Positions 17,611-31,794 of a stretch of DNA of 39,348 nt are shown piece after piece. The stretch's first letter is position 1; each line of letters starts with the position of its first letter. The translations under genes and the position numbers were made by a program. The notes beneath the pieces were generated by a model. It saw nothing but the letters and a program-made list of their open reading frames with translations. It ran no database searches and had not been told where the DNA came from. Source of the DNA: Candidatus Azambacteria bacterium (GTDB taxonomy: Bacteria; Patescibacteriota; Minisyncoccia; GWC2-36-17; WO2-46-25); contig JANLHQ010000091.1 of assembly GCA_024654415.1 (NCBI GenBank), forward strand, positions 1-39,348. Reading direction: 5' to 3'.

Positions 17611-17706
17611 CGCACTCGAACTGTTGCGCCCTTTCCGTGGCACATAGTCGAGCGCGCCCCCCGTCCCTTTCATAAGGGATTTTTATTCGTTATCATTAAC
17701 AAATAT

Positions 17707-18219
17707 ATGAAAAATAAAGCGCAAGGTATTATTTTTGGAGTCGTCGCGACAGTGGCTGTTGCTGGCATCATCTTCTTTATATGGAGCACATCTCAAAGAA
17801 GTGAAACGGTAGCACCGAACGAGTGGAGCGGAAGCGCGCTTACCGCCCAAGAGCAATTTGTTGATTTTGGTACTATTTCAATGACAGCAGGCAAGGTGCG
17901 TAATTCTTTTGCAGTACGAAACGATGGTACGGAGCCCGTTGCAATCACAAAAATCGTTACATCTTGTATGTGTACAGAGGCAACTCTTACAGCAGGTGGC
18001 AAGAGCTTTGGCCCATTTGGAATGGCGGGGCATGGAGCATTGCGGAGTATACGCCAAGAAGTTATGCCGGGAGAGACAGTTGAGCTGGAGGCGGAGTTCG
18101 ATCCTGCCGCACATGGCCCCTCGGGTACGGGGAAAATACGACGCGTCGTATATGTAGAAACGAATTCTCAGACAAACCCAAAACTGGAGTTCTCATTTGA
18201 AGCAAACGTTACAAAATAA
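17707..18219 (+). CDS. DUF1573-family membrane-anchored protein (CxC motif)
   Basis: TM anchor, then VDFGTISMTAGKVRNSFAVRNDGTEPVAITKIVTSCMCTEA, matching the DUF1573 pattern (FDFG...F.N.G..PL.I..V..SCGCT). Confidence 0.75.
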   Translation: MKNKAQGIIFGVVATVAVAGIIFFIWSTSQRSETVAPNEWSGSALTAQEQFVDFGTISMTAGKVRNSFAVRNDGTEPVAITKIVTSCMCTEATLTAGGKSFGPFGMAGHGALRSIRQEVMPGETVELEAEFDPAAHGPSGTGKIRRVVYVETNSQTNPKLEFSFEANVTK

Positions 18220-18223
18220 TCAT

Positions 18224-18772
18224 ATGGATAAAAATACAAAACTTACCATTATTATTGTTGCCGCAATTCTTCTTGCGCTTGCCGTGTTCGGTGTTATCGC
18301 AACAGACATGAAAGACCGACTTGGAAGAATTGAACGGCAACTTGAGCATCTCGATGAAGAGGTAGATGAGGTGGGGGTAAACGTGAAACGCCTCACCGGG
18401 AAGATCACTGCACCGCAAGACGTATCTATAGAAAAACAAGGGCAGTTGCCTCGCGCAGAGCTCGATGTGCGGGAATATGACTTCGGGAAGATTACAAAAA
18501 TCGCCGGCATCGTGAACACAAAATTCACCATACGCAACACGGGTGAAAGTGCGCTCACAATCGGGGAAATGCTGACGTCATGCAGTTGCACCTCAGCAAC
18601 AACGGACAAAATAAGCGTGCCTGCGGGCGAAAGCGCCAGCATCACCGTTGCCTTTGATCCAAACTTCCACGAAGAGCCGCAGGGACGTTTTTTTCGCTCG
18701 GTGTTCATCCCTACGAACGATCCTGCAAATCAAGAGATCGAGCTAAAGATTTATGTTGAAATAATTAACTAA
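18224..18772 (+). CDS. DUF1573-family membrane-anchored protein (second copy, CxC motif)
   Basis: Track start 18197 is TTG inside the previous gene; ATG at 18224 (MDKNTKLTIIIVAAILLALAVFGVI). YDFGKITKIAGIVNTKFTIRNTGESALTIGEMLTSCSCTSA. Confidence 0.75.
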   Translation: MDKNTKLTIIIVAAILLALAVFGVIATDMKDRLGRIERQLEHLDEEVDEVGVNVKRLTGKITAPQDVSIEKQGQLPRAELDVREYDFGKITKIAGIVNTKFTIRNTGESALTIGEMLTSCSCTSATTDKISVPAGESASITVAFDPNFHEEPQGRFFRSVFIPTNDPANQEIELKIYVEIIN

Positions 18773-18785
18773 ACACTAAAACACC

Positions 18786-19805
18786 ATGGAAATCCAGAAC
18801 GAACACAATACACCAGAGGAAATAACAATACCTCCTACAGACCATATTCTTTCAAGCACTGAATCACACCAAGAGCTCTTACTGGAGGGTAAAAAGACCA
18901 CATTCTGGAAATGGGTCGCTATTGGATTTATTTTCGTCTTTGCAATGAATCTGTTGTTTGAGATCTCTATCACGATACGACCACGTTTTTATTCCTCCAC
19001 GCCACGAGTTACCACTGACTATGAGACACCTGCCGAACAGCAAACCGAGGCGACACTTACTGCATCAGTACTCCCGGCTGCGGGTGTTACGCTTCCGGTG
19101 CGCTGGGGCGACCTTGGCAAACAAATGGTGGATGCAGGCGTAATTGATGGCGCAAAATTTGAAGCAACCTATGCACAACGTGGGGGGCTCGATGAAAATG
19201 CAAAACAACTACTCTACGGAGCACAAAATGGCGCGCTCGTGATCACCGAACAAAATTCCGGGATCTTACTCAACCTTCTGTGGGCACTCGGGCTTGGTAA
19301 TAAAAATGAAATTCTGGAAAAAGGACCTATGACAGATAAGCAGTATGGTGGCGCGGATAAGTTTGCATCAACTGGCGGATGGACGCTCGCAAAAGGCAAC
19401 GTGATGAACCACTACAGCATGCATGCATTTATGACTCTTACGTCAGACCAACAAGCACTCGTAGCGCGCGTATCTCAGAACATCTATCGTCCGTGTTGCG
19501 GGAACTCTGTCTATTTCCCCGACTGCAATCACGGCATGGCGATGCTTGGCCTCCTTGAGTTGATGGCATCCCAAGGCGCTTCAGAGCAGCAAATGTATAA
19601 AACTGCGCTTGCGGTAAACGCATACTGGTTCCCTGACACCTACACTGCTATTGCAAAATATTTCGCAAAACGCGGCGTCGCGTGGGCAAACATTGACCCT
19701 AAAGAAGCGCTTGGCGCGGCATATTCAAGCGCGCAGGGCTATCGCCAGATCCTTACTGAAGTTGAACCATCCACGCCAAAAGGTGGTGGCGGATGCGGAG
19801 TATAA
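18786..19805 (+). CDS. Membrane-anchored extracytoplasmic protein with CC-x8-C-x-H motif, unknown family
   Basis: TM WKWVAIGFIFVFAMNLLFEISI. Motif YRPCCGNSVYFPDCNHGMAMLG. C-terminus PKGGGGCGV. Confidence 0.7.
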   Translation: MEIQNEHNTPEEITIPPTDHILSSTESHQELLLEGKKTTFWKWVAIGFIFVFAMNLLFEISITIRPRFYSSTPRVTTDYETPAEQQTEATLTASVLPAAGVTLPVRWGDLGKQMVDAGVIDGAKFEATYAQRGGLDENAKQLLYGAQNGALVITEQNSGILLNLLWALGLGNKNEILEKGPMTDKQYGGADKFASTGGWTLAKGNVMNHYSMHAFMTLTSDQQALVARVSQNIYRPCCGNSVYFPDCNHGMAMLGLLELMASQGASEQQMYKTALAVNAYWFPDTYTAIAKYFAKRGVAWANIDPKEALGAAYSSAQGYRQILTEVEPSTPKGGGGCGV

Positions 19806-19904: not shown

Positions 19905-20648
19905 ATGGAACATGAACCGTTCGAGAAAAATATATCGCTCACACAACAAAGAAGTGGGCGCATACTTGTAATCGCCATTCTTATTGCTGGGGTGATGATC
20001 AGTGGGGCAATTTATTTCGCAGGAAAATCAGAAAAGCCAAATGCCGCACAACAAACGACGCCTTCATTCGGAGGAGAGTCGCTAGAAAATATAAAACCCG
20101 TAGGGAGTGCTGATCATATTCGGGGCAACCCAAATGCGCCAATCAAAATAGTGGAATTTTCTGATCCCGAGTGTCCATTCTGCAAACGCTTCCATATAAC
20201 TATGCAGCAAATAATGCGTGAATACGGCGCGAGCGGGCAAGTTGCCTGGATATATCGACAATTCCCTATAGATCAAATTCATTCGCTGGCTCGCAAGGAA
20301 ACAGAGGCAACCGAGTGCGCAGGAGGGATTGGCGGTAATGATACGTTCTGGGAGTACTTAGATCGCTTACTTGAAATAACCCCATCAAACAATAATCTTG
20401 ACCCTCAAGAACTACTGCGGATCGCAGACTATGTGCGTATAGATCGTGGTCAGTTTGAAGAATGCCTTCAGCGCGGAAACTATGCCCAACACATACAAGA
20501 TGATGTGGATGATGCAATACGCTCAGGAGGAACCGGCACCCCTTATAGCATCGTCATAGCAAAAAATGGCAAAAAATTCGTGATCAATGGAGCTCAGCCA
20601 TACTCGGTAGTAAAAGCCATACTTGACGTAGCGCTTCAAGAAAAATAA
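19905..20648 (+). CDS. Membrane-anchored DsbA-family thiol:disulfide oxidoreductase (CPFC)
   Basis: TM anchor ILVIAILIAGVMISGAIYFA. Thioredoxin-fold active site IVEFSDPECPFCKRFH. cis-Pro loop GGTGTPYSIV. Confidence 0.85.
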   Translation: MEHEPFEKNISLTQQRSGRILVIAILIAGVMISGAIYFAGKSEKPNAAQQTTPSFGGESLENIKPVGSADHIRGNPNAPIKIVEFSDPECPFCKRFHITMQQIMREYGASGQVAWIYRQFPIDQIHSLARKETEATECAGGIGGNDTFWEYLDRLLEITPSNNNLDPQELLRIADYVRIDRGQFEECLQRGNYAQHIQDDVDDAIRSGGTGTPYSIVIAKNGKKFVINGAQPYSVVKAILDVALQEK

Positions 20649-20650
20649 AC

Positions 20651-21238
20651 ATGCACGACACGCGCAAACAAAGCAAGATAGAAGTTATGATAACCGCAAT
20701 GAAAGAGGTGTTTCACCATAACGCCCACATTCTTCTTGCCGCGGGAGCGAGTAGCGCAATACTTCTTCTTGTGTTGTGGCTGCCCCACAGCACGCTCATA
20801 GCTCAAATAGCCCGTGATACGCACATCCCTACAATCACAAAGGTAAAAATTCCACTACTTCTCCTTGGGGGTATCCGTACAAACTTTAGTTATTTTTCTG
20901 CGTCTTATACCATAGCAATTTCTATTCTCTTTGGTATGAATCTCGCGATGATCACATATCTTTTCAGAAAAAGAAAACCGGTGATCCAGCAGGGTGGCAT
21001 AGCTGTAGGATTTGGAGGCATGGTAAGTGGCGTATTAGGCGTTGGCTGTGCCGCGTGTGGATCGCTCGTGCTTACCAGTATTCTTTCGGTAGCGGGTGCT
21101 TCAAGCGTACTGGTATTTCTCCCCCTTCAAGGATCAGAGTTAGGAATTATAAGTATCGTGCTCCTTATAGTCTCGCTTTTTTTCGTATCTCGAGAAATAA
21201 TCACCCCATTACAATGTAAAATAGACGCACCCTTATGA
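20651..21238 (+). CDS. Polytopic membrane protein with intramembrane CxxC (GVGCAACGS), unknown family
   Basis: About 5 hydrophobic segments. CAAC inside a Gly-rich helix, and a third Cys near the C-terminus (PLQCKID). Starts 2 nt after the DsbA stop and overlaps the rhodanese start (ATGA). Confidence 0.65.
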   Translation: MHDTRKQSKIEVMITAMKEVFHHNAHILLAAGASSAILLLVLWLPHSTLIAQIARDTHIPTITKVKIPLLLLGGIRTNFSYFSASYTIAISILFGMNLAMITYLFRKRKPVIQQGGIAVGFGGMVSGVLGVGCAACGSLVLTSILSVAGASSVLVFLPLQGSELGIISIVLLIVSLFFVSREIITPLQCKIDAPL

Positions 21239-21672
21239 AAAACAAAATAATTATTCTTATAGGCGCTACAATTGTTCTTCTTATTGGCTTTGTGATACTC
21301 CGTGCCCCATTACGAAACACACCGTCACCAGCACAAAACACAGGGATGGAAAAACCTGGGTTTAGCGCCCTCTCGAGTACAGAACTTGCATCAATGCTCG
21401 AAAAGAAAGATTTCTTTTTGGTAAACGTCCACATTCCGCAAAATGAAGAGATTCGTGGTACCGATGCTTTTATCGCGTTCGACGAAATAAAAGAAAATCT
21501 TGCACTGTTACCACAAGATAAAAGCGAAAAAATCGTGCTCTATTGCAGAAGTGGTAGTATGAGCGACATAGCAGCGCAAGAACTGGCTGGATTGGGTTAC
21601 ACCAACGTATTTTCCTTATCCGGCGGAATGAATGCTTGGAAAGAAAGTGGGCGTGCAGTGTATCCACGGTAA
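21235..21672 (+). CDS. Membrane-anchored single-domain rhodanese (sulfurtransferase)
   Basis: TM anchor IIILIGATIVLLIGFVIL. Rhodanese core FFLVNVHIPQNEEIRGTDAFI...KIVLYCRSGSMSDIAAQELAGLGYTNVFSLSGGMNAWKESG with active-site loop CRSGSMS. Confidence 0.85.
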   Translation: MKNKIIILIGATIVLLIGFVILRAPLRNTPSPAQNTGMEKPGFSALSSTELASMLEKKDFFLVNVHIPQNEEIRGTDAFIAFDEIKENLALLPQDKSEKIVLYCRSGSMSDIAAQELAGLGYTNVFSLSGGMNAWKESGRAVYPR

Positions 21673-21682
21673 TCGCATATAT

Positions 21683-21883
21683 ATGGACAACCATACACGT
21701 CATAACGATACAACGGCATACGCATGCCTGATGCATCCGGAGATCCGGCGGCCACCACCGCGAAGGAGTCCTATCATTCGCTTCGATATCCCCTTTTCCG
21801 CAATTGATCACGCTAAAGATTCGCGCGATCGGCGGCATTACCGAACAGATCTTCACGTGGGAAATAAAATAGATCGCACATAA
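21683..21883 (+). pseudogene. Degenerate copy of the CopB N-terminal heavy-metal-binding module (remnant or divergent 66-aa ORF)
   Basis: MDNHTRHNDTTAYACLMHPEIRRPPPRRSPIIRFDIP... versus CopB IVYTCPMHPEIRRTAPGMCPECGMNLVP. 20 nt are identical (21731-21750 = 22271-22290). The CPxCGM cysteines are replaced by SPIIRF. No SD. Confidence 0.35.
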
Positions 21884-21934
21884 AAATCAAAAAAGGTCGA
21901 AAGAATAAATGTAACTAATTATCAATAAATTACT

Positions 21935-22207
21935 ATGAAACTTAACGCACAAAAATTCGCGCTTGCCGCGACCATTACAATGGGTATCGCGTACGCACTC
22001 TGCGCAGCATTTACCGCACTAAGCCCCGACCTTGCCATGAAGTTCTTGGGTTGGATCATCCATCTCACCAATGTTGATAAATTCACCTCAATTGAAGTGA
22101 CGCTGGGAAGCTTTATCGCCAGTCTTGTACCCATCCTTGTGTATACATACGCAGGGACATATCTATTCGCATCGTTATATAATAGATTCACGCAACAAAA
22201 CGCATAG
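21935..22207 (+). CDS. Small membrane protein (90 aa) immediately upstream of copB
   Basis: MKLNAQKFALAATITMGIAYALCAAF...SFIASLVPILVYTYAGTYLFASLY: 2-3 hydrophobic helices. Stop lies 3 nt before the copB ATG. May correspond to a DUF family often adjacent to P1B ATPases (DUF5676, from memory and unverified). Confidence 0.6.
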   Translation: MKLNAQKFALAATITMGIAYALCAAFTALSPDLAMKFLGWIIHLTNVDKFTSIEVTLGSFIASLVPILVYTYAGTYLFASLYNRFTQQNA

Positions 22208-22210
22208 TAT

Positions 22211-24370
22211 ATGGAACACAAGCACGAAAATGCCGCTCAAAACGAAGCGGGAATAGTTTATACCTGCCCAATGCATCCGGAGATCCGGCGTACTGCACCG
22301 GGAATGTGTCCTGAATGCGGTATGAATCTTGTTCCCGTCAAAGAGAAAAAAACGGACGCGGATCACAGCACACACGACCACGCGGAGAAAAAAACCTCTA
22401 TGGGAGCAGGCAAACACGCCGGCCATAGCACCGCGATGTTTTTTAGGAAATTCTGGATAAGCTTGGTCCTCACGATCCCGGTCGTGCTGTATGCCGATGT
22501 CATCGAGAAAATTTTTAAATGGTCTCCACCCGAATTTCCCGGATCACACTACATGCCCTTAGTGCTTGGCTCTATCGTATTCTTCTATGGCGGATGGATC
22601 TTTCTTGCCGGAGCACAAAGAGAACTCAAAGCCCGCTTGCCGGGCATGATGACGCTTATCGGTATTGCCATCTCGGCGGCATACCTCTGGAGCATATATG
22701 CGGTGTTTGCCGGCGTGGAAGCGTTGTTTTGGGAGCTCACTACGCTGATCACCGTTATGCTTCTCGGTCATTGGCTCGAGATGCGCGCAGTGTCGGGAGC
22801 GCAAGGCGCGCTGAAGGAATTATCAAAACTGCTTCCAGACACTGCCGAGGTGATCCGCAATGACAAAACAGAAACAATCCCTCTCTCCGAGCTTCGGGAG
22901 AACGACACGGTTCTCGTAAAACCGGGGACCAAGATCCCCGCCGACGGCGCAATTATAGACGGCGTATCGGACGTGAACGAATCAATGGTCACTGGAGAAT
23001 CAAAGCCGGTTTCCAAAAAAGAAGGCGACCAAGTCATTGCCGGAACGATCAACGGCGATGGCGCGTTGAAGATACGCGTTTCGAACATCGGCGAAAAAAC
23101 ATTTCTTGCAGGAATCATGCGCTTGGTTGCCGAGGCGCAAGCGTCGAAATCACGGCTTCAAATGCTTTCAGACAAAGCCGCGCTTTATTTGACGATAATC
23201 GCGGTTGCGGGTGGGCTTATCACCATGACTGCGTGGCTTGTTGCCGGCGCAGATATCGCTTTTGCTGTTGCGCGGCTTGTGGCGGTGCTTGTCATCGCCT
23301 GCCCTCATGCACTAGGGCTTGCCGTACCGCTTGTCGCCTCGATCTCAACAACCAAAGCGGCGCATAACGGCGTTCTGGTGAAGCAACGGATCGCGCTGGA
23401 AGCGGCGCGTACCATCGATACGGTGCTCTTTGATAAGACTGGAACGCTCACCAAAGGCGATTTCGGGGTTGTGGCAATATGGAATGCGAACGGTCACAGC
23501 ACGAATGAGGTTTTGGAGCTGGCCGCTTCACTTGACGCGCTATCGGAACATCCGATCTCAAAAGCCATTGTTGCCAAAGCAAAAGAACAGAAACTCCCGC
23601 TCAAAGAACCAAGAAAATTTGAAGCATTAAAGGGCAGAGGGGTCAAAGCGTTCATTGAAGAGAAGGAAATAATGGTGGGGGGACCGGCACTGCTTGAAAG
23701 CATCGGCATTATTATTCCCGAAGAACTTTCAGGGCCGGTCAAGGACGCCGGCATGAAGGGGCACACCGTCGTCTTTGCGATACAAGACCGAATACTTCTT
23801 GGAGCGATTGCGCTTGCCGATATCATCCGCGAAGAATCACGGGAAGCGATCAAAGCGCTTAAAGAAATGAATGTGGCGACGGCGATGATCACGGGCGATT
23901 CCGATGATGTAGCCAAATGGGTCAGTAAAGAACTTGGCATCGACGAGTATTTTGCACGCGTACTCCCCCATCAAAAATCAGAAAAAGTGAAGGAACTTCA
24001 AAAGCGGGGGCTCAAGGTCGCTATGGTCGGCGACGGCATCAACGATGCGCCGGCACTCACACAGGCCGATCTTGGCATCGCGATCGGCGCGGGCACGAAC
24101 GTGGCCATTGAGTCGGCTGGCATCATTTTGGTTCGCAATGATCCGCGGGATATTGTAAAAATAATCACGCTGTCCAAATTGACCTACGCAAAAATGATCC
24201 AGAATCTTTTTTGGGCAACCGGGTACAATGTCGTCGCGCTCCCGCTCGCGGCCGGGGTCCTCGCTTTCAAAGGCATTCTCCTTCAGCCGGCGCTTGCCGC
24301 CGTACTCATGTCGGCAAGCACGGTTATCGTTGCGATCAACGCGCTCCTTCTTCGGCGGAAACAGTTATAA
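22211..24370 (+). CDS. copB: Heavy-metal (copper) P1B-type ATPase, CopB-like (CPH motif)
   Basis: N-terminal YTCPMHPEIRRTAPGMCPECGMNLVP plus a His-rich stretch DADHSTHDHAEKK...HAGHS. TGES, transmembrane ACPHALGLAVP, phosphorylation site FDKTGTLT, hinge GDGINDAPAL, late TMs GYNVVALP and LMSASTVIVAINA. Confidence 0.93.
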   Translation: MEHKHENAAQNEAGIVYTCPMHPEIRRTAPGMCPECGMNLVPVKEKKTDADHSTHDHAEKKTSMGAGKHAGHSTAMFFRKFWISLVLTIPVVLYADVIEKIFKWSPPEFPGSHYMPLVLGSIVFFYGGWIFLAGAQRELKARLPGMMTLIGIAISAAYLWSIYAVFAGVEALFWELTTLITVMLLGHWLEMRAVSGAQGALKELSKLLPDTAEVIRNDKTETIPLSELRENDTVLVKPGTKIPADGAIIDGVSDVNESMVTGESKPVSKKEGDQVIAGTINGDGALKIRVSNIGEKTFLAGIMRLVAEAQASKSRLQMLSDKAALYLTIIAVAGGLITMTAWLVAGADIAFAVARLVAVLVIACPHALGLAVPLVASISTTKAAHNGVLVKQRIALEAARTIDTVLFDKTGTLTKGDFGVVAIWNANGHSTNEVLELAASLDALSEHPISKAIVAKAKEQKLPLKEPRKFEALKGRGVKAFIEEKEIMVGGPALLESIGIIIPEELSGPVKDAGMKGHTVVFAIQDRILLGAIALADIIREESREAIKALKEMNVATAMITGDSDDVAKWVSKELGIDEYFARVLPHQKSEKVKELQKRGLKVAMVGDGINDAPALTQADLGIAIGAGTNVAIESAGIILVRNDPRDIVKIITLSKLTYAKMIQNLFWATGYNVVALPLAAGVLAFKGILLQPALAAVLMSASTVIVAINALLLRRKQL

Positions 24371-25069: not shown

Positions 25070-25339
25070 ATGCCAAAAATAAAAAAGATCGTTGTGGATA
25101 GGAATTTATGCATCGGCGCGGCGAGCTGTGTGCTTTCAGCCGACACCGTGTTTGAACTCGACGCGGAGAACAAAGCGATCATGAAGCTCAAAGGCGGCGT
25201 GAAAAGCGCCGACCCCGCAGAAAAAACAACGCTCGAAGACGACGCGGTCGCAGACGATACGCTCCTTACCGCGGCGCAATCATGCCCCACGCGCGCGATA
25301 TTTCTTTATGACGAAGACGGCACACAGGTGTACCCGTAA
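25070..25339 (+). CDS. Small single-cluster ferredoxin, 3-Cys type (CxxAxxC...CP), likely [3Fe-4S]
   Basis: VDRNLCIGAASCVLSADTVFELD...LLTAAQSCPTRAIFLYDEDG. Only three Cys, in the classic spacing with Ala at the second ligand position. Confidence 0.8.
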   Translation: MPKIKKIVVDRNLCIGAASCVLSADTVFELDAENKAIMKLKGGVKSADPAEKTTLEDDAVADDTLLTAAQSCPTRAIFLYDEDGTQVYP

Positions 25340-26586
25340 TGGAAAAGATTAAGTATCTCATCATCGGCGGCGGCGTGGCGGGCACCACAGCCGCAGAAAC
25401 CATTCGCCAGCTTGATCCTCTTGGCTCATGCACCATTGTATCCGATGAACCATATCGGATGTATTCGCGTATCATGCTTTCAAAACCGAATTTTTTTCTT
25501 GAAAAAATCCCTTTTGATCAGATCTGGCTCAAACAAGATGACTGGTATCAGAAAAATACTATTTCGCTTATCACCGGCAAAAAAGCAACCGCGCTCGACA
25601 CTACAAAAAAAACAGTAACGCTCAATGATGGTACGACTATTACCTATGAAAAATTACTCCTTGCGCCTGGCTCGCGCGTGCGTATGTGGGACATTCCCGG
25701 AGCAGAGAAGGAAGGTATTTATTATCTCCGAACGCTCGATGATGCAAAAGGAATTATCGCGAAAGTAAAATCCGCAAAACGAGCGATCGTGGTTGGCGGC
25801 GGATTTGTCGGGTTTGAAATGTGTGAAATGCTTCACCTCGCCGGCATTGAAGTAACGCTCATCATCCGTGAGCCGTATTTTTGGGATCCTATACTTGATC
25901 AGCGCTCCGGTGCACGCATTGAGACTATACTCGAACTCGGCGGTATTAAAATCCTGCGCAACTCTCAAGTAAAAGAAGTTGTGGGCAATGCCACCGCGCA
26001 AGGGGTTACACTCCATAATAATATTATACTTCCCACCGATATGATTGTTGTCGGTATTGGCACTTATTGCCCATTTGCGTGGATACAAACTGCAGGCATA
26101 CAGGTAAACCAGGGTATCCTCACAAATGAATATCTTATGACAAACGCGCCTGATGTGTGGGCAGCTGGCGATGGCGCGGAATTTAAAGATGTTATTTTGG
26201 ACGAGCACATCCAGCTCGGCAATTGGGCGAACGCGCAAATGCAAGGCAGGGTTGCCGCGCGCAACATGTGCGGTGACGAAACAGAATTTCGCCTCGTATC
26301 GTTTTATGTGACAAGCGGGTTTGGCATTACCATTGCATTTGCGGGAGACATACGCCCGAGCGAAGGACGAGAAATCATTGCCCGCGACACGGCAGACGGC
26401 ATTTCCCTTTCACGACTTATTTTAAAAGCCGACAAAATTATCGGCGCGACAATGATCAACAACACCAAAGAGCTTGCTACGATAACAAAATTGGTTGAGA
26501 AAGGCACAAGTATGAAACATAGTAAGGAAAAGCTCGCAGATGCTTCATTCGACCTTAAAGCGCTCTTAGAAACACCCACACAATAA
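25339..26586 (+). CDS. FAD-dependent pyridine nucleotide-disulfide oxidoreductase (ferredoxin/rubredoxin reductase-like)
   Basis: FAD Rossmann YLIIGGGVAGTTAAE, NAD(P) Rossmann AIVVGGGFVGFEMCE, and VWAAGDGAEF. Start overlaps the ferredoxin stop (TAATG). Confidence 0.85.
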   Translation: MEKIKYLIIGGGVAGTTAAETIRQLDPLGSCTIVSDEPYRMYSRIMLSKPNFFLEKIPFDQIWLKQDDWYQKNTISLITGKKATALDTTKKTVTLNDGTTITYEKLLLAPGSRVRMWDIPGAEKEGIYYLRTLDDAKGIIAKVKSAKRAIVVGGGFVGFEMCEMLHLAGIEVTLIIREPYFWDPILDQRSGARIETILELGGIKILRNSQVKEVVGNATAQGVTLHNNIILPTDMIVVGIGTYCPFAWIQTAGIQVNQGILTNEYLMTNAPDVWAAGDGAEFKDVILDEHIQLGNWANAQMQGRVAARNMCGDETEFRLVSFYVTSGFGITIAFAGDIRPSEGREIIARDTADGISLSRLILKADKIIGATMINNTKELATITKLVEKGTSMKHSKEKLADASFDLKALLETPTQ

Positions 26587-26662: not shown

Positions 26663-27094
26663 TTATACTGCGATACCAAGAAGCATTATACCACCGAAAA
26701 TAAGTGTGGTGACAAAAAAAACACAGCTTGGATACACAAGAAAGCGATGAATCTTTGGCGTGCGCTTTCCAGTAAATAAAAAAAGCGCAGAGAGAAATGA
26801 AAGAGCGAATAACGACGCAACTACCAGGTGAAGAGAGTGAACAATACTGCTTCGTATGGATTCTTCAACCCCACCACCCTGTTTAAGGATCTCAACTAAA
26901 ACAACTACAACAAGTACGCCGATGAGCGATATAGCCGCACATACCCTGTGCGATGCAAGGAAGTTATCGTCTCGGTCCTCCCTTGTTTTACCACTTTTTA
27001 CATATTTCCTTCCACATACCACGGTAAGGAAGATGAACATGGTGGTAAGAATGAAAGACATATAAATACCATACCTCGCTAACAGCATAAACAT
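26663..27094 (-). CDS. Polytopic membrane protein (143 aa), unknown family
   Basis: Four hydrophobic helices. Very strong SD (AAGGAGGAGGG) upstream of the ATG. Confidence 0.6.
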   Translation of the reverse strand: MFMLLARYGIYMSFILTTMFIFLTVVCGRKYVKSGKTREDRDDNFLASHRVCAAISLIGVLVVVVLVEILKQGGGVEESIRSSIVHSLHLVVASLFALSFLSALFLFTGKRTPKIHRFLVYPSCVFFVTTLIFGGIMLLGIAV

Positions 27095-27905: not shown

Positions 27906-28409
27906 ATGCTTGTACTACTCCATAACATACGAAGCGCGCATAATGTCGGCTCTATTTTTAGAACTGCCGATGCGGCGGGCATTGAAAAAATATACTTATG
28001 CGGTATCACCCCTGCCCCGATAGACCGCTTCGGAAAACCGCGGCAAGAAATCGCAAAAGTTGCGCTTGGCGCGGAAAGCACCGTGCCATGGGAAATATCC
28101 CATTCAACCGTTTCCCTGCTTAAAAAACTCAAAAAACAGGGGTTTATGATATATGCCATAGAACAAAGCGTTCGCTCAATGCCCTACAATACAATGCGCC
28201 TACATAAAAAAGAGCTCGCGCGTACTGTGCTGGTGGTTGGCAATGAGGTTGAGGGGCTTTCTTCTTCTATACTCACTCACGCAGATACTATTCTTGAAAT
28301 TCCTATGAGCGGGGGGAAAGAATCGCTCAACGTCGCCGTCGCGTTCGGCATCGTCGCATTTCACCTGCTTCACCCAGTGGGTTCACGGATAGCCAAGAAG
28401 ATGCTATAG
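27906..28409 (+). CDS. SpoU/TrmH-family RNA 2'-O-methyltransferase
   Basis: LLHNIRSAHNVGSIFRTADAAG...VLVVGNEVEGLS...ILEIPMSGGKESLNVAVAFGIVAFHL = SPOUT motifs 1-3. Confidence 0.88.
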   Translation: MLVLLHNIRSAHNVGSIFRTADAAGIEKIYLCGITPAPIDRFGKPRQEIAKVALGAESTVPWEISHSTVSLLKKLKKQGFMIYAIEQSVRSMPYNTMRLHKKELARTVLVVGNEVEGLSSSILTHADTILEIPMSGGKESLNVAVAFGIVAFHLLHPVGSRIAKKML

Positions 28410-28436
28410 TAATCGCATAATTAAAGATACTTATCT

Positions 28437-29087
28437 ATGAAAAATCTTATCGTTTTCGGGGTTGTAGTAGTAGTTGCCGTGGGAGTTGGTTATTATTTTT
28501 TCTTCGCGCCAGGACAGCCAAAATCATTAGAAAATGAGCCGTCTTCATTTCCCATTGATACTCCTATTGAAAGCGACTCCGTGAAAGGGGCGCGCGACGC
28601 ACAAACGGTTCTTGTCGAATACAGTGACTTTCAATGTCCTGCATGCGCGGCATACCAACCAATCGTAAAACAAATCGCAGAAGAGTTTGATGGAAAGCTA
28701 GCAATCGTGTATCGCCACCTCCCACTACTTCAGCACAAACATGCAAAGATCGCAGCATATTCAGCTGAAGCCGCTGGCAAACAAGGAAAATTTTGGGAAA
28801 TGCATGACATGATCTTTGAAACGCAAAGAGATTGGTCATCAGAAAAAGATGCGCGCGATATCTTTATTGGCTATGCAGAGGCGCTTGGGCTTGACCGCGC
28901 GCAGTTCATTACTGACATTGACTCAAATGAGATTGCGGATAAAGTAAGCGCGCACTATAAAAGCGGGATGCAGGCGGGCGTGACAGGGACGCCTACATTT
29001 TTCCTTAACGGTGAAAAACTCGACACACCGCGCACCTACGAAGACTTCAAAAACGCAGTTGGAGAGGCCATCTTTAACACACAATGA
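28437..29087 (+). CDS. Membrane-anchored DsbA-family thiol:disulfide oxidoreductase (CPAC)
   Basis: TM anchor LIVFGVVVVVAVGVGYYFFFA. LVEYSDFQCPACAAYQP. cis-Pro loop GVTGTPTFFLNG. Confidence 0.85.
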   Translation: MKNLIVFGVVVVVAVGVGYYFFFAPGQPKSLENEPSSFPIDTPIESDSVKGARDAQTVLVEYSDFQCPACAAYQPIVKQIAEEFDGKLAIVYRHLPLLQHKHAKIAAYSAEAAGKQGKFWEMHDMIFETQRDWSSEKDARDIFIGYAEALGLDRAQFITDIDSNEIADKVSAHYKSGMQAGVTGTPTFFLNGEKLDTPRTYEDFKNAVGEAIFNTQ

Positions 29088-29701
29088 ACCAAACACTAAA
29101 AACAATTTTTATTTCGGCAATCATTGCTGGTATCGCAGGGAGCGCAGTGACGCTTATATTCATACGCCAACCAAACCCAGTAACAACGCCAACCGCAAAA
29201 GAGTTAATAAAAGAATTTTATCTTGCTGAGAATGCGGTACATGTAAGCCCGCACGGATTACGAGGAAAAATGGACGCTGGGGACCAATCATATATCCTTG
29301 TTGATCTCCGGAGTCCAGAGGAATATACAAAGGAGCATATTATCGGAGCGATAAATATCTACGCATATAAGGACCCGTACACGCCCGTATACGAAGACAA
29401 AGAGCGTATCGTGGAAGGATTCCGTACTCTACCTAAAGATAAGGACATCATCGTCTATTGTTATAGCACTGCGTGTATGACGGGGCGTAAGATCGGAAAG
29501 CTACTCGCTGAAAATGATATTTTTGTGAAGCAACTTGGTATCGGGTGGAATGAGTGGCGGCATTTTTGGACGCTCTGGAATCACGAGCATGAGTGGCGTA
29601 CTACGCGCGCGGAAGATTATATTACAAAGGGTACTGACCCCGGTGTACCAACGGTACGTACCTTACCCACTCCGTGTGGGATTGGTGAACTCGGGTGTTA
29701 G
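29084..29701 (+). CDS. Membrane-anchored rhodanese-domain protein with two-Cys active-site loop and C-terminal Cys pair
   Basis: TM anchor IFISAIIAGIAGSAVTLIFI. ILVDLRSPEEYTKEHIIGAINI...IIVYCYSTACMTGRKIGKLL...LGIGWNEW. Tail PTPCGIGELGC. Start overlaps the DsbA stop (ATGA). Confidence 0.8.
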   Translation: MNQTLKTIFISAIIAGIAGSAVTLIFIRQPNPVTTPTAKELIKEFYLAENAVHVSPHGLRGKMDAGDQSYILVDLRSPEEYTKEHIIGAINIYAYKDPYTPVYEDKERIVEGFRTLPKDKDIIVYCYSTACMTGRKIGKLLAENDIFVKQLGIGWNEWRHFWTLWNHEHEWRTTRAEDYITKGTDPGVPTVRTLPTPCGIGELGC

Positions 29702-29752
29702 TGGATTATATTATTGCAATTGGCTTACCCACTACAGTATACTAGAAGCATT

Positions 29753-30265
29753 ATGAGTTGGAATATTTTTCTCACAATCGCGCATATCGTTGGCACTGTC
29801 CTTGGTGTTGGTGGTGCGACGTTTGCTGAAATATTTTACATGAAGGCAATGAAAGATGGTCATGTCGACCCAACTGAAAGTGATTTTTTGAAAACAAGCT
29901 ACCGCGTTCTGCGCATCGGCATGATTCTTCTTATCCTCTCTGGGTTCGGTTATTTTCTTTTGTTCCGCATCGAAGGGAAGGAATTTCTCCTATATAACGA
30001 TCGCTTTCTTGCAAAGGTTTGGCTTACCATCATCATTTTTTTCAACGCGCTCCTCATTCAAACACGAAAGATTCCTTTGTGGCTTGGGGGCGCCCTTTCG
30101 ATTACTTCATGGTATGCGGCGCTTGTGCTTGGTATATGGAGAGGTATCCCGGCTTCGCTTTTTGCAATTACACTGTGGTATATTGCCGCAGTTCTTGTAG
30201 TAGCCTTGATTCTTCATGTTATTAGAAAGGCATATCTTAAAGCCCCACCTCAAATCCAACAATGA
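29753..30265 (+). CDS. Five-helix membrane protein with conserved His in TM1 (CopD/HemJ-like pattern?)
   Basis: Track start trimmed to ATG 29753 (MSWNIFLTIAHIVGTVLGVGGATFAE). TTGCAA-18 nt-TATACT ends 9 nt upstream of the ATG. A second His lies near the C-terminus (LILHVIRK). Confidence 0.6.
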   Translation: MSWNIFLTIAHIVGTVLGVGGATFAEIFYMKAMKDGHVDPTESDFLKTSYRVLRIGMILLILSGFGYFLLFRIEGKEFLLYNDRFLAKVWLTIIIFFNALLIQTRKIPLWLGGALSITSWYAALVLGIWRGIPASLFAITLWYIAAVLVVALILHVIRKAYLKAPPQIQQ

Positions 30266-30717
30266 CACCTTTTCTTAAAACACTTCTCTCACTTCATGTA
30301 ATTCTCGGTGTTATTGGTGTTATTGCGTTTGCGGGAGTGTGGATGAATATGCTTAAGCGCGCACTTCCATTGAAGTTTTTAAAGTGGTCTAGCGCAATTG
30401 GATTTATTTCATTTATTGCGTCGTGGTTTGCTGGTGGCTACTACTACACTGTGTATTACGGTAAAGCTGCAAAGCCCCTCATCGTTAAGGGGCAATATCC
30501 GTGGGCACATGCACTTTTTATGGAGGCAAAGGAACACATCTTTCTATTTCTCCCTTTTCTCGCGGCCTCATTATTCATCGCCCTTCTTCTTCTTGATAAG
30601 AATGCTGAAACAGAAGTACCTCTGAAGCGCGCGCTCACATGGCTCGCTGGTGTTATCGTGGTGCTTGGCATTATCATGACGCTTTCTGGAATTATTATTT
30701 CTGGTGCGGTAAGATAA
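30262..30717 (+). CDS. Four-helix membrane protein with His in TM1 and a KEH motif
   Basis: LLSLHVILGVIGVIAFAGVW; YPWAHALFMEAKEHIFLFLPF. Start overlaps the previous stop (ATGA). Confidence 0.6.
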   Translation: MTPFLKTLLSLHVILGVIGVIAFAGVWMNMLKRALPLKFLKWSSAIGFISFIASWFAGGYYYTVYYGKAAKPLIVKGQYPWAHALFMEAKEHIFLFLPFLAASLFIALLLLDKNAETEVPLKRALTWLAGVIVVLGIIMTLSGIIISGAVR

Positions 30718-31064
30718 TGTATATGGAACTCTCAAATATTCGACTTAAGATTATCCGCGCAACAATGTACGCCGCAGGGCTTACTATAGTATTTATTACC
30801 GGCGTCACTATTACTGCTGACCTATATCCACCGCTTAAAAATTGGTTAAAAATAACATTTTCTCACCACTGGATCGGAAAAGGAATCCTTGCCGCCGTCA
30901 TATTTATTATGGTGTCGCTAATACTTTCACTCCTCCCAGCTCACATAGATGAAGGAAAAATAAAAACACTCGTGCGAAGCGCATGGGTGCTCGTGATTAT
31001 TACTCTCATAGGGACTCTCGTTATCACCTCGTTCTTTATTTATGAGGCATTTCTTAAGCATTGA
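30717..31064 (+). CDS. Three-helix membrane protein (115 aa) with HH pair
   Basis: Track start trimmed to ATG 30717 (TAATG overlap): MYMELSNIRLKIIRATMYAAGLTIVFITGV...ITFSHHWIGKGILAAVIFIMV. Confidence 0.55.
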   Translation: MYMELSNIRLKIIRATMYAAGLTIVFITGVTITADLYPPLKNWLKITFSHHWIGKGILAAVIFIMVSLILSLLPAHIDEGKIKTLVRSAWVLVIITLIGTLVITSFFIYEAFLKH

Positions 31065-31066
31065 GC

Positions 31067-31744
31067 ATGGAAGCAAAGAAAATTAAAATCCTTGTTTTAT
31101 TTTACACGACTGGCGGATGCACCGCTGATTTTGCGAGAGAGATAGGCAGGGGCGCAGCATCGGTTGCGGGCGCAGAAGTTACGCTGAGACGTATTCCAGA
31201 AATTTTACCGCGAGAAGCCCTTGGAAGCAGTCCAGAGCGTGTTGCGCGCATGGAGGCACTCGAAAAAGAATTCCCTGAAGCAACCATTGAGGATCTTATC
31301 GAGGCGGACGGTGTTGCATTCGGTACACCCGTGCATTTCGGCTCATTTGCATCACAGGTAAAGCATTTTCTCGACCAACTCACCCTAGCATGGCACCAGC
31401 AAAAACTAGTCAACAAGCCAGCGGCGGTATTTTGCGTCGGCCATGGTATGCATAGTGGTGAAGAAGCGGCATTACTATCACTCATCATCCCACTCCTTAA
31501 TCTCGGTATGATTCCTGTTGGTATTCCCTATCCTATTCAAAGCGCCGCGCATGATTTCGATGCGGGAAGCCCCTATGGTGCCATTTTTATCTCTGCCGGC
31601 GGGAAACGCCAAATGACCGACATGGATAAAAAGGTTGCCCAAATTCTTGGCCGTCGACTTGCTTCCATGGCAACTCTGTTGAGTTGCGGTTGCGAGTCAT
31701 GTGGTGCATGCCACGAGCTCACGAAATCACTACCGCATCCATAA
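31067..31744 (+). CDS. wrbA: WrbA-like flavodoxin-fold NAD(P)H:quinone oxidoreductase with Cys-rich C-terminal tail
   Basis: Track start 31061 is TTG; ATG at 31067. KILVLFYTTGGCTADFAREIGRGA...ADGVAFGTPVHFGSFASQVKHFLDQL...AAVFCVGHG...GSPYGAIFISAGG aligns by eye with E. coli WrbA. Extra tail LLSCGCESCGACHELT. Confidence 0.8.
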   Translation: MEAKKIKILVLFYTTGGCTADFAREIGRGAASVAGAEVTLRRIPEILPREALGSSPERVARMEALEKEFPEATIEDLIEADGVAFGTPVHFGSFASQVKHFLDQLTLAWHQQKLVNKPAAVFCVGHGMHSGEEAALLSLIIPLLNLGMIPVGIPYPIQSAAHDFDAGSPYGAIFISAGGKRQMTDMDKKVAQILGRRLASMATLLSCGCESCGACHELTKSLPHP

Positions 31745-31767: not shown

Positions 31768-31794
31768 GCGTCGTACATAGTACGACGCTTTTTT
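31768..31794 (+). terminator. Rho-independent terminator after the WrbA-like gene
   Basis: gcgtcgtac-ata-gtacgacgc followed by tttttt. Confidence 0.8.

Follow-up and report, generated by a model that had tools for sequence, protein, structure and literature searches.

Do the six genes g1 to g6, found at 28437-31744 on the forward strand of a Candidatus Azambacteria (CPR) contig, encode a single redox system, and what could be the role of the three membrane proteins (g3-g4-g5, the trio) encoded in their midst? A preliminary description of the window (the whole stretch analysed, 39,348 nucleotides) proposed a novel operon. This would encode a relay from a cytoplasmic flavoprotein, through quinone or heme membrane subunits, to an extracytoplasmic DsbA-rhodanese couple, possibly for DsbA recycling.

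Layout of the operon and its gene products

The coordinates and junction letters confirm six co-directional genes with junctions of -4, +51, -4, -1 and +2 nt. The g1/g2 and g3/g4 overlaps are ATGA, g4/g5 is TAATG and g5/g6 is TGA-GC-ATG. The strong terminator reported after g6 is also found (9-bp stem with 6 G-C pairs, 3-nt loop, T6 tail). For g3, the start taken is the ATG at which its homologues begin with a conserved MDW/MSW. The promoter-like site, which is weak evidence from a consensus scan, falls within the last part of the SpoU methylase gene that precedes g1 (27906-28409); cotranscription of g1-g6 with this gene is not excluded.

Features of the six-gene operon and of the second cluster in the window
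Feature	Position	Strand	Description
Promoter-like site	28382..28410	+	TTCACG-17-TATAGT with TG; 27 nt 5′ of g1
g1	28437..29087	+	membrane-anchored DsbA-like thioredoxin-fold protein, 216 aa, CPAC
g2	29084..29701	+	membrane-anchored rhodanese, 205 aa, four invariant Cys
g3	29753..30265	+	5-TM subunit, 170 aa, no Cys
g4	30262..30717	+	4-TM subunit, 151 aa, no Cys
g5	30717..31064	+	3-TM subunit, 115 aa, no Cys
g6	31067..31744	+	WrbA-type NAD(P)H:quinone oxidoreductase with extra C-terminal Cys tail
Intrinsic terminator	31768..31794	+	GCGTCGTAC-ATA-GTACGACGC then TTTTTT; closes the operon
Second cluster	19905..24370	+	outside the operon; DsbA2, CAAC protein, rhodanese2, copper ATPase
DsbA2	19905-20648	+	Thioredoxin_4 9e-21
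5-TM protein	20651-21238	+	intramembrane CAAC
Rhodanese2	21235-21672	+	Rhodanese 3e-12
Copper-translocating P-type ATPase	22211-24370	+	TIGR01511 581 bits (cut-off 397), HMBD domain

The soluble and anchored proteins are what they had been taken for by eye. g1 matches Thioredoxin_4 (1.4e-29) and DSBA (1.1e-20) in Pfam, and has one N-terminal TM segment and its CxxC at residue 67. g2 has an N-terminal TM segment and a rhodanese domain (PF00581, 6.8e-14). The two-Cys loop and terminal Cys pair reported for it are real features of the family: C126 and C131 (in YCYSxxCMTG[RK]K), C198, C205 and a WNHEHEW stretch are invariant in 30 sequences. PspE models reach about 21 bits on g2, for cut-offs of 102-126 (NCBIfam). 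g6 exceeds both NCBIfam cut-offs for WrbA (NF002999, 148.2 bits, cut-off 141; TIGR01755, 136, cut-off 132.5). Its additional tail, CGCxxCxxCHEL (around 31676-31741), is conserved in all WrbA proteins encoded next to the trio and in the WrbA (164 bits) encoded next to a Ferric_reduct (FRD) protein in locus L131. No Pfam or NCBIfam family was matched by g3, g4 or g5.

Two modules with separate distributions

The six genes had been presented as one unit. The synteny survey finds the complete layout only in relatives at 70-88% identity (loci L004-L006, L088-L091). The operon consists of two separate conserved modules, DsbA-rhodanese and g3-g4-g5, joined in one small lineage.

The DsbA-rhodanese module is widespread in CPR and DPANN. 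The four-Cys rhodanese family, with 1296 matches at about 60% identity, is far broader than the trio (141-166 matches). Orthologues of g1 directly adjoin the rhodanese gene in 38 of 84 rhodanese loci. The majority of pairs have no membrane partner in cis. VKOR (PF07884, 94 bits) is encoded between the DsbA and rhodanese genes in 7 orthologous loci, and a Ferric_reduct heme protein 3′ of the pair in 5; the two never co-occur. The order in L131 is DsbA-Rhd-[Ferric_reduct]-WrbA (PF01794, 33.6 bits, cut-off 28), and that of the window DsbA-Rhd-[trio]-WrbA. Layouts related to that of L131 are found in L084, L105, L132 and L134.

g3-g4-g5 is a conserved genetic unit. This membrane unit of three proteins had not been described before and occurs largely in CPR bacteria. 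The order g3-g4-g5, on the same strand and with short or overlapping junctions, is kept in about 73 of the 83 loci, which span many CPR groups. The g4 family has 335 representatives in 1.84 billion proteins. One protein (P0392) is a natural g4-g5 fusion. Outside CPR, at least five representatives have g4 fused to a DUF4079/Cytochrom_B561-like domain carrying four invariant His on four helices. This domain fills the g3 position, the g3 gene is absent, and a g5-like GHHW gene lies 3′ of each such fusion examined. g3 has a single invariant His and no detectable homology with the b561-like domain.

A flavodoxin-fold NAD(P)H reductase from either of two families is encoded beside the trio in 37 of 84 loci; dereplicated at 70% g3 identity, this is 17 of 49 lineages. 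These neighbour counts are raw, from loci that are phylogenetically not fully independent. Flavodoxin_2 proteins (PF02525, 2e-29) are found in 28 trio loci, at several different positions, and WrbA-type proteins in 9, either upstream or downstream. L171 has a flavoprotein of a third type, YHS-TrxR-like, whose gene overlaps that of the g5-like protein. Over half of the trio loci lack any flavoprotein gene within four genes. Peroxiredoxin genes lie 3′ of the trio in L001 and L057.

DsbA-rhodanese, trio and WrbA could be independent envelope or oxidative-stress genes that a streamlined genome has packed onto one transcript. In the compact genomes of CPR bacteria, unrelated genes often overlap at their junctions. 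The full layout of six genes occurs in one clade only, each module occurs far more often alone than combined, most trios have no DsbA or rhodanese gene nearby (DsbA in 6 of 84 loci), and unrelated housekeeping genes flank many of them. Such co-location without coupling is nevertheless judged improbable. Repeated and independently arranged adjacency to two flavoprotein families, the g4 fusions, and the occurrence of one WrbA subtype next to the trio as well as next to Ferric_reduct, in both cases after the same DsbA-rhodanese pair, are hard to obtain by chance. Of the relay first proposed, a conserved membrane unit tied to a cytoplasmic flavoprotein is supported; the six-gene unit and DsbA recycling as primary role are not.

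Putative function of the membrane unit

Reading of the sequences finds no cysteine whatever in g3-g5. Six His are invariant over the trio: H11 in g3; H12, H83 and H92 in g4; H50 and H51 in g5. In g3 (46 sequences aligned), G14, G18, G20 and G21 are also invariant, within a Gly-rich TM1 (HxxGTxLGVGGATFAE). In g4 (43 sequences), the invariant set also includes G16, W55, Y61, Y62, Y66, E88, K90, E91 and P98. In g5, LKxWLxxxFxHHWxGK, which includes the HH pair pointed out previously, is invariant in 73 locus sequences. All residues flagged in g2-g5 by the preliminary description are conserved; g4 H83, H92, Y61, Y62 and Y66, absent from its list, are conserved as well. The H-x3-G pattern shared by g3 and g4 is conserved in both, but g3 and g4 are not detectably homologous and the likeness is one of motif alone.

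The AF2 models of g3 (pLDDT 88, five long helices) and g4 (pLDDT 91) give no significant Foldseek hit (best E-values 0.67 and 0.17), and neither protein has a PDB sequence match; these fold and sequence searches link neither to known heme or copper proteins. Invariant His beside Gly-rich helix faces (g3 HxxGxxxGxGG, g4 HxxxG) would be the pattern expected for heme packing. According to the positive-inside rule, a weak topology estimate, all six invariant His seem to lie in the outer membrane half, which leaves no obvious inner-leaflet redox site.

The reading retained, tentatively and at slightly less than an even chance, is that the trio is a new analogue, though no homologue, of membrane electron conduits of FRD/b561 type. 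It would receive its electrons from a flavoprotein in the cytosol and support thiol, sulfur or copper chemistry at the cell surface. g3-g4-g5 would be a three-subunit Cys-free membrane oxidoreductase binding candidate heme b and/or copper. In a putative complex with the cytosolic NAD(P)H flavoprotein encoded next to it (here g6), it would pass reducing equivalents between NAD(P)H in the cytoplasm and the outer side of the membrane. The flow would most likely be outward: NAD(P)H would reduce FMN, and the electrons would go on, possibly by way of a quinone, to the trio and from there to a surface acceptor. In the Azambacteria clade, the trio module would have come to lie 3′ of DsbA and the four-Cys rhodanese, a surface pair that is conserved in its own right; this placement suggests a role in the redox chemistry of thiols, sulfur or copper at the surface. 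The tie between trio and flavoprotein and the FRD/VKOR swaps at DsbA-rhodanese loci make a membrane redox link from flavoprotein to surface DsbA/rhodanese a reasonable idea. Several points count against this reading: the searches that link g3 and g4 to no known heme or copper protein, the single invariant His of g3, the outer position estimated for all six His, and the many trio loci with no flavoprotein gene nearby. In addition, CPR bacteria are in general not known to possess pathways for making heme and quinones, and it is not obvious how heme, a one-electron carrier, would reduce or oxidise the disulfide of DsbA.

The trio and WrbA could, as first suggested, be an alternative DsbA re-oxidation route, in place of VKOR/DsbB. 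Electrons from DsbA, possibly relayed by rhodanese Cys or a copper centre, would cross the membrane, reach the flavin of WrbA and end on quinone or O2. The mutually exclusive VKOR and Ferric_reduct genes at DsbA-rhodanese loci agree with it, since the trio fills the same neighbourhood in the window clade, and the scanned proteins of the window include neither VKOR nor DsbB. The role is rather unlikely. Having no cysteine, g3-g5 cannot re-oxidise DsbA in the manner of DsbB or VKOR, and such thiol exchange is excluded; the Ferric_reduct protein has no Cys either. DsbA is rare near trios, a membrane partner in cis is missing from most DsbA-rhodanese pairs, and all three flavoprotein types are NAD(P)H oxidisers. 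Every known NOX, STEAP, MsrQ or b561 system exports electrons taken from NAD(P)H or ascorbate, which argues against DsbA recycling as primary role. In addition, the second DsbA of the window has its own Cys-bearing membrane neighbour, in the place occupied by VKOR in other CPR loci. The earlier statement that the window has no DsbB or VKOR holds by Pfam for the membrane proteins scanned; it overlooked this second DsbA cluster and its CAAC membrane protein. The strong copper link, described below, was missed together with the second DsbA/rhodanese cluster.

If the trio is the conduit proposed, its likeliest chemistry is that of Cu(II)/Cu(I) or of copper-damaged surface thiols, because copper-export genes are its most consistent non-flavoprotein companions across lineages. 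They lie beside the trio in 8 loci and nearby in 6 of 49 CPR lineages. The order cupredoxin-CopA-CopZ-trio is found in L013, L026, L050, L053 and L069, and CsoR-x-WrbA-trio-CopA in L003 and L036. In L017, the only locus with DoxX, multicopper oxidase and DoxX genes precede the trio. The g4 fusion lies just downstream of a CopA-like ATPase in 4 of 4 contexts examined (three distinct representatives, L169 and L170 carrying the same protein). These ATPases are 55-69% identical to that of the window, which is encoded 4 kb upstream of the operon.

The same companions would suit a copper-handling module without transmembrane electron transfer, a reading considered unlikely. A distantly CopD/DUF2214-like g3, with g4 and g5, would bind or move copper as a cop accessory; the flavoprotein would act apart, as a soluble cupric or quinone reductase or a stress enzyme. 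Besides the copper ATPase of the window, the trios that close cupredoxin-CopA-CopZ operons and the fusion contexts, this is consistent with invariant His, Glu, Tyr and Met close to the predicted outer face (g4, g5) and with weak matches of g3 to DUF2214 (4 of 46 members) and DUF2269 (3 of 46) and of g4 to DUF2933 (9 of 43). None of these matches attains any family threshold. Lineages with copper genes near the trio are fewer than those with a flavoprotein (6 versus 17 of 49), and the b561-like fusion of g4 and the replacement of the trio by Ferric_reduct point to redox activity, not transport.

A small ion or cation transporter, with the flavodoxin-fold protein as a regulatory subunit comparable to KefF in the KefF-KefC potassium efflux system, is very improbable. 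It is suggested by weak matches of g4 to MnhB (E 0.0026) and g5 to Mrp subunit F (E 0.021), of the Flavodoxin_2 partner to KefF, and by an Ion_trans fragment near the trio in 5 loci. Scores are far under the NCBIfam cut-offs for MnhB (18 versus 139.75) and Mrp subunit F (15 versus 81) and under that for KefF (26.7 bits versus 210). The invariant residues form His/Tyr clusters and no charged conduction path, and neither the b561-like fusion nor displacement by Ferric_reduct fits.

Comparison with known systems

In DsbA-VKOR and DsbA-DsbB pairs, an anchored CPAC DsbA is likewise encoded beside membrane proteins, and orthologous CPR loci are DsbA-VKOR-rhodanese. The thiol-quinone relay that defines these pairs is absent from the Cys-free g3-g5, and no VKOR or DsbB match was found in Pfam or NCBIfam. 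In disulfide formation with PspE and in DoxX-SseA-SodA of M. tuberculosis, a rhodanese that is exported or sits at the membrane cooperates with thiol-redox and integral membrane proteins. g2 belongs to a distinct anchored four-Cys family, and the membrane proteins of the trio are not DoxX.

As in cop operons (CopY/CsoR-CupA-CopA-CopZ), the trio can be co-operonic with anchored cupredoxin, CopA, CopZ and CsoR. In ScsABCD, a DsbA-like thioredoxin-fold protein is linked to copper tolerance; the operon has no ScsB/DsbD-type partner. g3 weakly resembles the CopD-related DUF2214 and DUF2269 (compare CopCD), with no member at family threshold. Rhodanese and flavoprotein are foreign to the cop, ScsABCD and CopCD systems.

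Eukaryotic Fe(III)/Cu(II) reductases include Ferric_reduct proteins of STEAP/Fre type and b561 proteins of Dcytb type. The cytochrome b561/DUF4079 di-heme carriers, to which Dcytb-type ferric and cupric reductases belong, are related to the trio by the natural fusion of a four-His b561-like domain to g4; in the window this domain is absent, and g3, with no detectable homology, stands in its place. MsrQ, of the NOX/STEAP superfamily, receives electrons from an NADH oxidoreductase in the cytosol and, with FMN and heme as carriers, delivers them to its partner in the periplasm (PMC12525009). The arrangement proposed for the trio, from a cytosolic NAD(P)H flavoprotein through a membrane protein to an extracytoplasmic partner, is that of MsrPQ of E. 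coli and of the Ferric_reduct superfamily (NOX, STEAP, Fre1). The trio differs from these in sequence and fold, in having three small subunits for one 6-TM protein, in lacking the two-His-pair pattern and the molybdoenzyme partner of MsrPQ, and in its flavoprotein (WrbA or Flavodoxin_2, versus Fre or a fused FNR-like domain). At CPR loci, the exact place of the trio, between the same DsbA-rhodanese pair and the same Cys-tailed WrbA, can be taken by a Ferric_reduct protein.

Gene content and family assignment

The window comes from a MAG of Candidatus Azambacteria (CPR/Patescibacteria) and is one contig of 39.3 kb. Reading of the sequence and profile scoring found the six co-directional genes g1 to g6, their junctions, the terminator and the DsbA, rhodanese and WrbA calls as in the preliminary description. 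Coordinates, junctions and family scores all agree, and this observation is therefore confirmed. The g1/g2 and g3/g4 junctions are ATGA overlaps and g4/g5 is TAATG; gaps of 51 nt and 2 nt separate g2 from g3 and g5 from g6. A SpoU methylase gene ends 27 nt 5′ of g1. An Rrf2 regulator gene, then a SUF operon, are found 3′ of g6.

The g1 protein matches PF13462 (103.9 bits, cut-off 23.2) and PF01323 (74.6 bits, cut-off 25.6), has its CPAC at residues 67-70 and shows one N-terminal hydrophobic segment by a simple hydropathy scan. g2 contains a rhodanese domain (PF00581, 52.6 bits, cut-off 22.2) whose catalytic Cys is in a six-residue loop, the invariant C131-M-T-G-R/K-K; this loop presumably equals those of PspE and GlpE in length and in its G and R positions. 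The protein is below the PspE and GlpE equivalog cut-offs (21.2 vs 102 bits and 21 vs 126.3 bits, respectively) and belongs to a separate family of anchored four-Cys rhodaneses. g6 is classified by family score as WrbA, NAD(P)H:quinone oxidoreductase type IV (NF002999: 148.2 bits, cut-off 141, profile positions 2-198 of 200; TIGR01755: 136 bits, cut-off 132.5). With E values up to 0.1, g3, g4 and g5 match no Pfam or NCBIfam family; NCBI protein NUV61_04045 has the same sequence as the g3 product. Neither DsbB nor VKOR was found among the window proteins scanned.

Features of the window discussed in the text (TM, transmembrane segment; positions are those of the window)
Feature	Position	Strand	Characteristics
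137-aa 2-TM protein, two DUF1573 proteins, 339-aa protein	17197-19805	+	directly upstream of the DsbA2 cluster; 137-aa protein with His-rich stretch GHGADHMH; 137-aa and 339-aa proteins without family
The two DUF1573 proteins of the row above	17707-18772	+	
DsbA2	19905-20648	+	CPFC
195-aa 5-TM protein	20651-21238	+	GVGCAACG inside a helix; without family
Rhodanese2	21235-21672	+	anchored; single Cys; CRSGSMS loop
83-aa ORF	21632-21883	+	just before the copper ATPase; YACLMHPEIRR
Copper-translocating P-type ATPase	22211-24370	+	HMBD domain; TIGR01511 581 bits (cut-off 397)
Pyridine-nucleotide disulfide oxidoreductase	25339-26586		between the second cluster and g1-g6
143-aa 4-TM protein	26663-27094	-	His in three helices (SHR, VHSLH, IHR)
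g1	28437-29087	+	DsbA-like Thioredoxin_4; CPAC; predicted N-terminal hydrophobic anchor
g2	29084-29701	+	rhodanese; N-terminal anchor
g3	29753-30265	+	membrane protein; no Pfam/NCBIfam family; no Cys
g4	30262-30717	+	membrane protein; no Pfam/NCBIfam family; no Cys
g5	30717-31064	+	membrane protein; no Pfam/NCBIfam family; no Cys
g6	31067-31744	+	WrbA by two NCBIfam equivalog cut-offs
g6 tail	~31676-31741	+	20 residues, Cys-rich, outside the WrbA model
Terminator hairpin	31768-31794	+	9-bp G+C-rich stem; T6 tail

A second DsbA cluster, missed by the preliminary description, is found upstream of g1, with junctions of +2 (DsbA2/5-TM protein) and -4 (5-TM protein/rhodanese2). Its CAAC-bearing 5-TM protein is in the slot held by VKOR in other CPR DsbA-VKOR-rhodanese loci. 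It was considered as a divergent VKOR or DsbD_TM and rejected: no Pfam or NCBIfam family is matched, and no BLAST similarity was detected to CPR VKOR or to the DsbD_TM-like protein of one trio-bearing locus (L003). In L003, a DUF1573 gene is beside the DsbD_TM-like gene, near the trio. The 83-aa ORF has a motif nearly identical to the N-terminal HMBD motif of the ATPase (YTCPMHPEIRR) and may be either a remnant or a short HMBD protein in its own right. The 143-aa 4-TM protein looks b561/DUF4079-like by eye; this candidate was rejected (hhalign probability 0.5% against the profile of the b561-like domain of the g4 fusions, no Pfam match).

Two modules: the membrane trio and the DsbA-rhodanese pair

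The three membrane proteins g3-g4-g5 (the trio) form one conserved unit. The g3 homology search gave 141 matches, all of them unannotated proteins of CPR metagenomes; the scan of one genome per species gave 80 loci, all in Patescibacteria MAGs. Gene order and strand are kept in about 73 of the 83 loci examined by tblastn with the window proteins, most of the others being cut by contig ends or having diverged partners (e.g. L053). The lineages include Azambacteria, Kerfeldbacteria, Kaiserbacteria, Doudnabacteria, Lloydbacteria, Campbellbacteria, Yonathbacteria, Nomurabacteria, Berkelbacteria and one Microgenomates genome. The g4 family is small, since an exhaustive profile search found 335 representatives in 1.84 billion clusters. 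In one of them, P0392, g4 and g5 are naturally fused, with one additional TM segment as the link. Other genes on the contig of P0392 (L168, 5001-5828) include BcrAD/HGD-D (benzoyl-CoA-reductase-like), thiolase and enoyl-CoA hydratase; this context is non-CPR-looking and has no flavoprotein or copper gene nearby.

The invariant residues are H11, G14, L17, G18, G20, G21, T23, R54, G56, S63, G64, G112, W120 and Y121 in g3 (46 sequences), H12, G16, W55, Y61, Y62, Y66, G67, H83, E88, K90, E91, H92, F94, P98, G143 and S147 in g4 (43 sequences), and K41, L44, H50, H51, W52 and K55 in g5 (73 sequences; F48 and G54 nearly invariant). These columns give the trio six invariant His, several Tyr and Glu, and a Gly-rich TM1 in g3; the His pattern of the preliminary description thus extends to all homologues aligned. 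All invariant His seem to be in the outer half of the membrane (our own estimate, by the positive-inside rule). Paralogy among g3, g4 and g5 was rejected, BLASTP and hhalign comparisons being not significant.

Resemblance to known families was sought by sequence and by fold. The AF2 models of g3 (pLDDT 88, five helices) and g4 (pLDDT 91, four long helices) have no significant match in the PDB by Foldseek. A fold assignment was rejected: all matches are generic helical bundles with E > 0.1 (cytochrome bd, bo3 subunit III, b561, NOX, STEAP), and their redox flavour is treated as non-evidence. The g3 and g4 alignment profiles matched no PDB sequence. Window g3 matches none of CopD, DUF2214 and DUF2269. 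Weak matches to DUF2214 (4 of 46 g3 homologues, best E 6.1e-5) and DUF2269 (3 of 46), none at threshold, concern what we take to be CopD-related families and are a lead only for a possible distant relationship. DUF2933 is weakly matched, below threshold, by 9 of 43 g4 members. DsbB/VKOR membership of g3-g5 is contradicted: those proteins have two redox-active Cys pairs (one in a loop, one CXXC) beside a quinone site, and g3-g5 have no Cys; no Pfam match was obtained either. For Ferric_reduct and cytochrome b561, no Pfam match was obtained with g3-g5, and g3 has one invariant His, compared with a four-His (two-heme) pattern on separate helices in those families. g4 and g5 score far below the Mrp antiporter small subunits (18.3 vs 139.75 bits and 15.2 vs 81 bits).

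The DsbA-rhodanese pair forms a module of its own. With 1296 hits (~60% identity), the g2 family is large and extends over Parcubacteria, Microgenomates, Peribacteria and DPANN archaea. The Cys pattern reported for the window rhodanese is kept in the 30 sequences aligned, C126, C131, C198 and C205 being invariant together with a WNHEHEW stretch. The ~59% identity of DPANN members (Aenigmarchaeota, Woesearchaeota; P0330, P0343) suggests that this rhodanese may have been exchanged between CPR and DPANN. g1-type DsbA adjoins the rhodanese in 38 of 84 rhodanese loci, usually directly upstream. By neighbour clustering, the arrangements include DsbA-VKOR-rhodanese (7 loci; VKOR PF07884, 94 bits), DsbA-rhodanese-Ferric_reduct with or without WrbA (5 loci) and thioredoxin-like-rhodanese (8 loci). 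VKOR as such is present in 7-8 of the 84 loci. VKOR and Ferric_reduct never occur in one locus among these 84. Recurrent neighbours of the rhodanese further include copper ATPases (4 loci), ArsR regulators, DsrE and a SHOCT protein rich in Met and His (7 loci). In L086, the rhodanese follows DsbD_TM and OsmC genes.

DsbA-rhodanese-trio-WrbA is found only in close relatives of the window (L088, L089, L091, L004-L006); near the trio, DsbA is found in 6 loci and rhodanese in 5. The six genes are thus a clade-specific assembly of two modules and no conserved system as a whole. The clearest case is locus L131, which has the order DsbA (CPAC), rhodanese, a 219-aa Ferric_reduct protein without Cys (PF01794, 33.6 bits, cut-off 28) and WrbA (164 bits, C-terminal end LLNCGCERCNVCHDL). 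The same genes therefore flank a Ferric_reduct heme protein in one arrangement and the trio in the other.

Flavoprotein, copper and fusion partners of the trio

ORFs were called in all trio loci, four genes per side were clustered and cluster representatives were annotated. The commonest neighbour is a ~192-aa Flavodoxin_2 protein (PF02525, 2e-29), co-directional in 28 loci: directly downstream of the trio in 15, directly upstream in 5 and a few genes off in the rest. A WrbA-type protein adjoins the trio in 9 loci, following it in the window clade and preceding it in Doudnabacteria-like loci. Counted as raw neighbours within four genes, flavodoxin-fold NAD(P)H reductases are found in 37 of 84 loci and in 17 of 49 lineages after collapse at 70% g3 identity, so that under half of the trios show a flavoprotein at this distance. 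The occurrence of two flavoprotein families, on either side of the trio, is an argument for functional coupling as opposed to inherited synteny.

Every trio-adjacent WrbA has an extra C-terminal tail, [SN]CGCxxCxxC[HQ][ED]L. This tail, with four Cys and one His, is common to trio-adjacent and Ferric_reduct-adjacent WrbA (L131, 6317-6988) and may bind a metal or an Fe-S cluster, or serve for docking. The WrbA-like protein of L084 has a partial tail only (C-x5-C).

A ~73-aa Met-rich, all-helical soluble protein without Pfam family (cluster C1, MLKNFLMKKMLKSQLKDVPE...GKDQMTAMMEVMQNHQEEL; e.g. L024, 6932-7153) immediately precedes the trio in 16 loci, most of which have Flavodoxin_2 downstream; it may be a fourth component. 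Peroxiredoxins are found near the trio in 2 loci. In L055, L061, L068, L070, L072 and L076, genes for the flavin transferase ApbE and for an anchored protein of 149 aa lie divergently beside the trio, upstream on the opposite strand. These loci are a single Kaiserbacteria lineage, and ApbE with the small exported protein was not counted as an extracytosolic flavinylation link.

Copper genes, likewise counted raw within four genes, are near the trio in 8 of 84 loci (6 of 49 lineages): anchored cupredoxin-CopA-CopZ-trio (5 loci), CsoR-x-WrbA-trio-CopA (2 loci) and a multicopper-oxidase/NirK-like pair with DoxX in front of the trio (1 locus). The anchored cupredoxin upstream of CopA (L026, L013, L053, L069) has a CuA-like C-x3-C-G-x2-H motif and weak matches to the NosZ and CoxB CuA domains, which suggests a putative electron-transfer copper centre, not a chaperone only.

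Outside CPR, some g4 representatives are long (~300-330 aa). The N-terminal half of these proteins scores up to 36.4 bits for DUF4079 (cut-off 31.4) and comes just under threshold for Cytochrom_B561 (22.2 vs 23). Four invariant His, one in each of four helices, give this domain the classical two-heme pattern. A g5-like gene with a GHHW motif follows the fusion in every context retrieved (four contexts, three distinct representatives). Close upstream of each fusion is a gene for a P-type ATPase with 55-69% identity to the copper ATPase of the window. The two genes are direct neighbours in three contexts; in L171, two small genes intervene, and a YHS-domain thioredoxin-reductase-like flavoprotein gene overlaps the g5-like gene. 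No g3 gene is present in the four contexts; with the b561-like domain, a known type of transmembrane electron carrier thus takes the place of g3 in another lineage. Homology of g3 to this domain was rejected (hhalign probability 1.6%), and the functional analogy of the trio to Ferric_reduct/b561 proteins rests on the fusion and displacement evidence.

Proposed function and known systems

The best-supported reading is that the trio is a cofactor-binding membrane oxidoreductase through which a cytosolic flavoprotein is connected to the outer side of the membrane; we infer the cofactor and the flavoprotein contact. This reading is drawn from the conserved unit, the three kinds of associated flavoprotein, the fusion of g4 to a b561-like di-heme domain, the replacement by Ferric_reduct and the invariant His beside Gly-rich helix faces. 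Eukaryotic Fe(III)/Cu(II) reductases fall into two classical families, Ferric_reduct and b561, and this fits the association with copper ATPases. Weak points are that sequence and fold comparison showed no homology of the trio to any cofactor-binding protein, that the invariant His seem to be in the outer half of the membrane, that CPR bacteria are usually unable to make heme or quinone, and that most trios show no flavoprotein within four genes. Electrons would pass from NAD(P)H to the cytosolic flavoprotein, to the trio and to an acceptor at the outer face. Outward flow is favoured, since each of the three kinds of flavoprotein beside the trio would oxidise NAD(P)H and electron export is the direction in all analogous systems. 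Candidate acceptors would be Cu(II), the anchored CuA-like cupredoxin and the sulfur/disulfide chemistry of the rhodanese-DsbA pair.

In its general form, the relay of the preliminary description (flavoprotein, membrane subunits, surface rhodanese/DsbA) is backed by the Ferric_reduct and VKOR architectures. Its DsbA recycling route is weakened, because the trio has no Cys, most trios have no DsbA and the likely flow is opposite.

A more specific reading, tentative and rather improbable, makes the trio a previously unrecognised heme and/or copper oxidoreductase which, with a soluble NAD(P)H flavoprotein, would be a minimal electron-export route of fermentative CPR. Its acceptor might be Cu(II), O2, the surface sulfur/disulfides of DsbA-rhodanese, or an anchored CuA-like cupredoxin that passes electrons to NirK or to a multicopper oxidase. 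If this reading is true, the trio would give a self-contained respiratory-like or detoxifying chain to organisms thought to have none.

The genomic evidence for the trio is consistent and multi-pronged; the mechanism is what we infer from it. The literature search found no paper on the trio, on the Cys-tailed WrbA or on DsbA-rhodanese pairing in CPR. What is defined here is a compact, unannotated three-gene membrane module, tied to NAD(P)H flavoproteins and copper ATPases in many CPR lineages and interchangeable with, or fused to, known transmembrane electron carriers. Two further families are defined: the four-Cys anchored rhodanese of CPR and DPANN, habitually with DsbA, and the WrbA subfamily with a CGCxxCxxCH tail. 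CPR/Patescibacteria are generally described as without electron-transport chains. The trio touches on how they maintain surface thiols, handle copper and supply orphan copper enzymes.

With its soluble flavoprotein donor, the trio would be a membrane electron conduit built from unrelated, unannotated proteins. If so, it would represent a new kind of protein for the task that NOX, STEAP, MsrQ and b561 perform, and an entry point into CPR envelope redox biology. MsrQ belongs to the NOX/STEAP superfamily; a cytosolic NADH oxidoreductase delivers electrons through FMN and heme, and a periplasmic partner is reduced (PMC12525009). As a membrane conduit fed by a cytosolic NADH oxidoreductase and serving a periplasmic partner, it is the closest described system to the trio.
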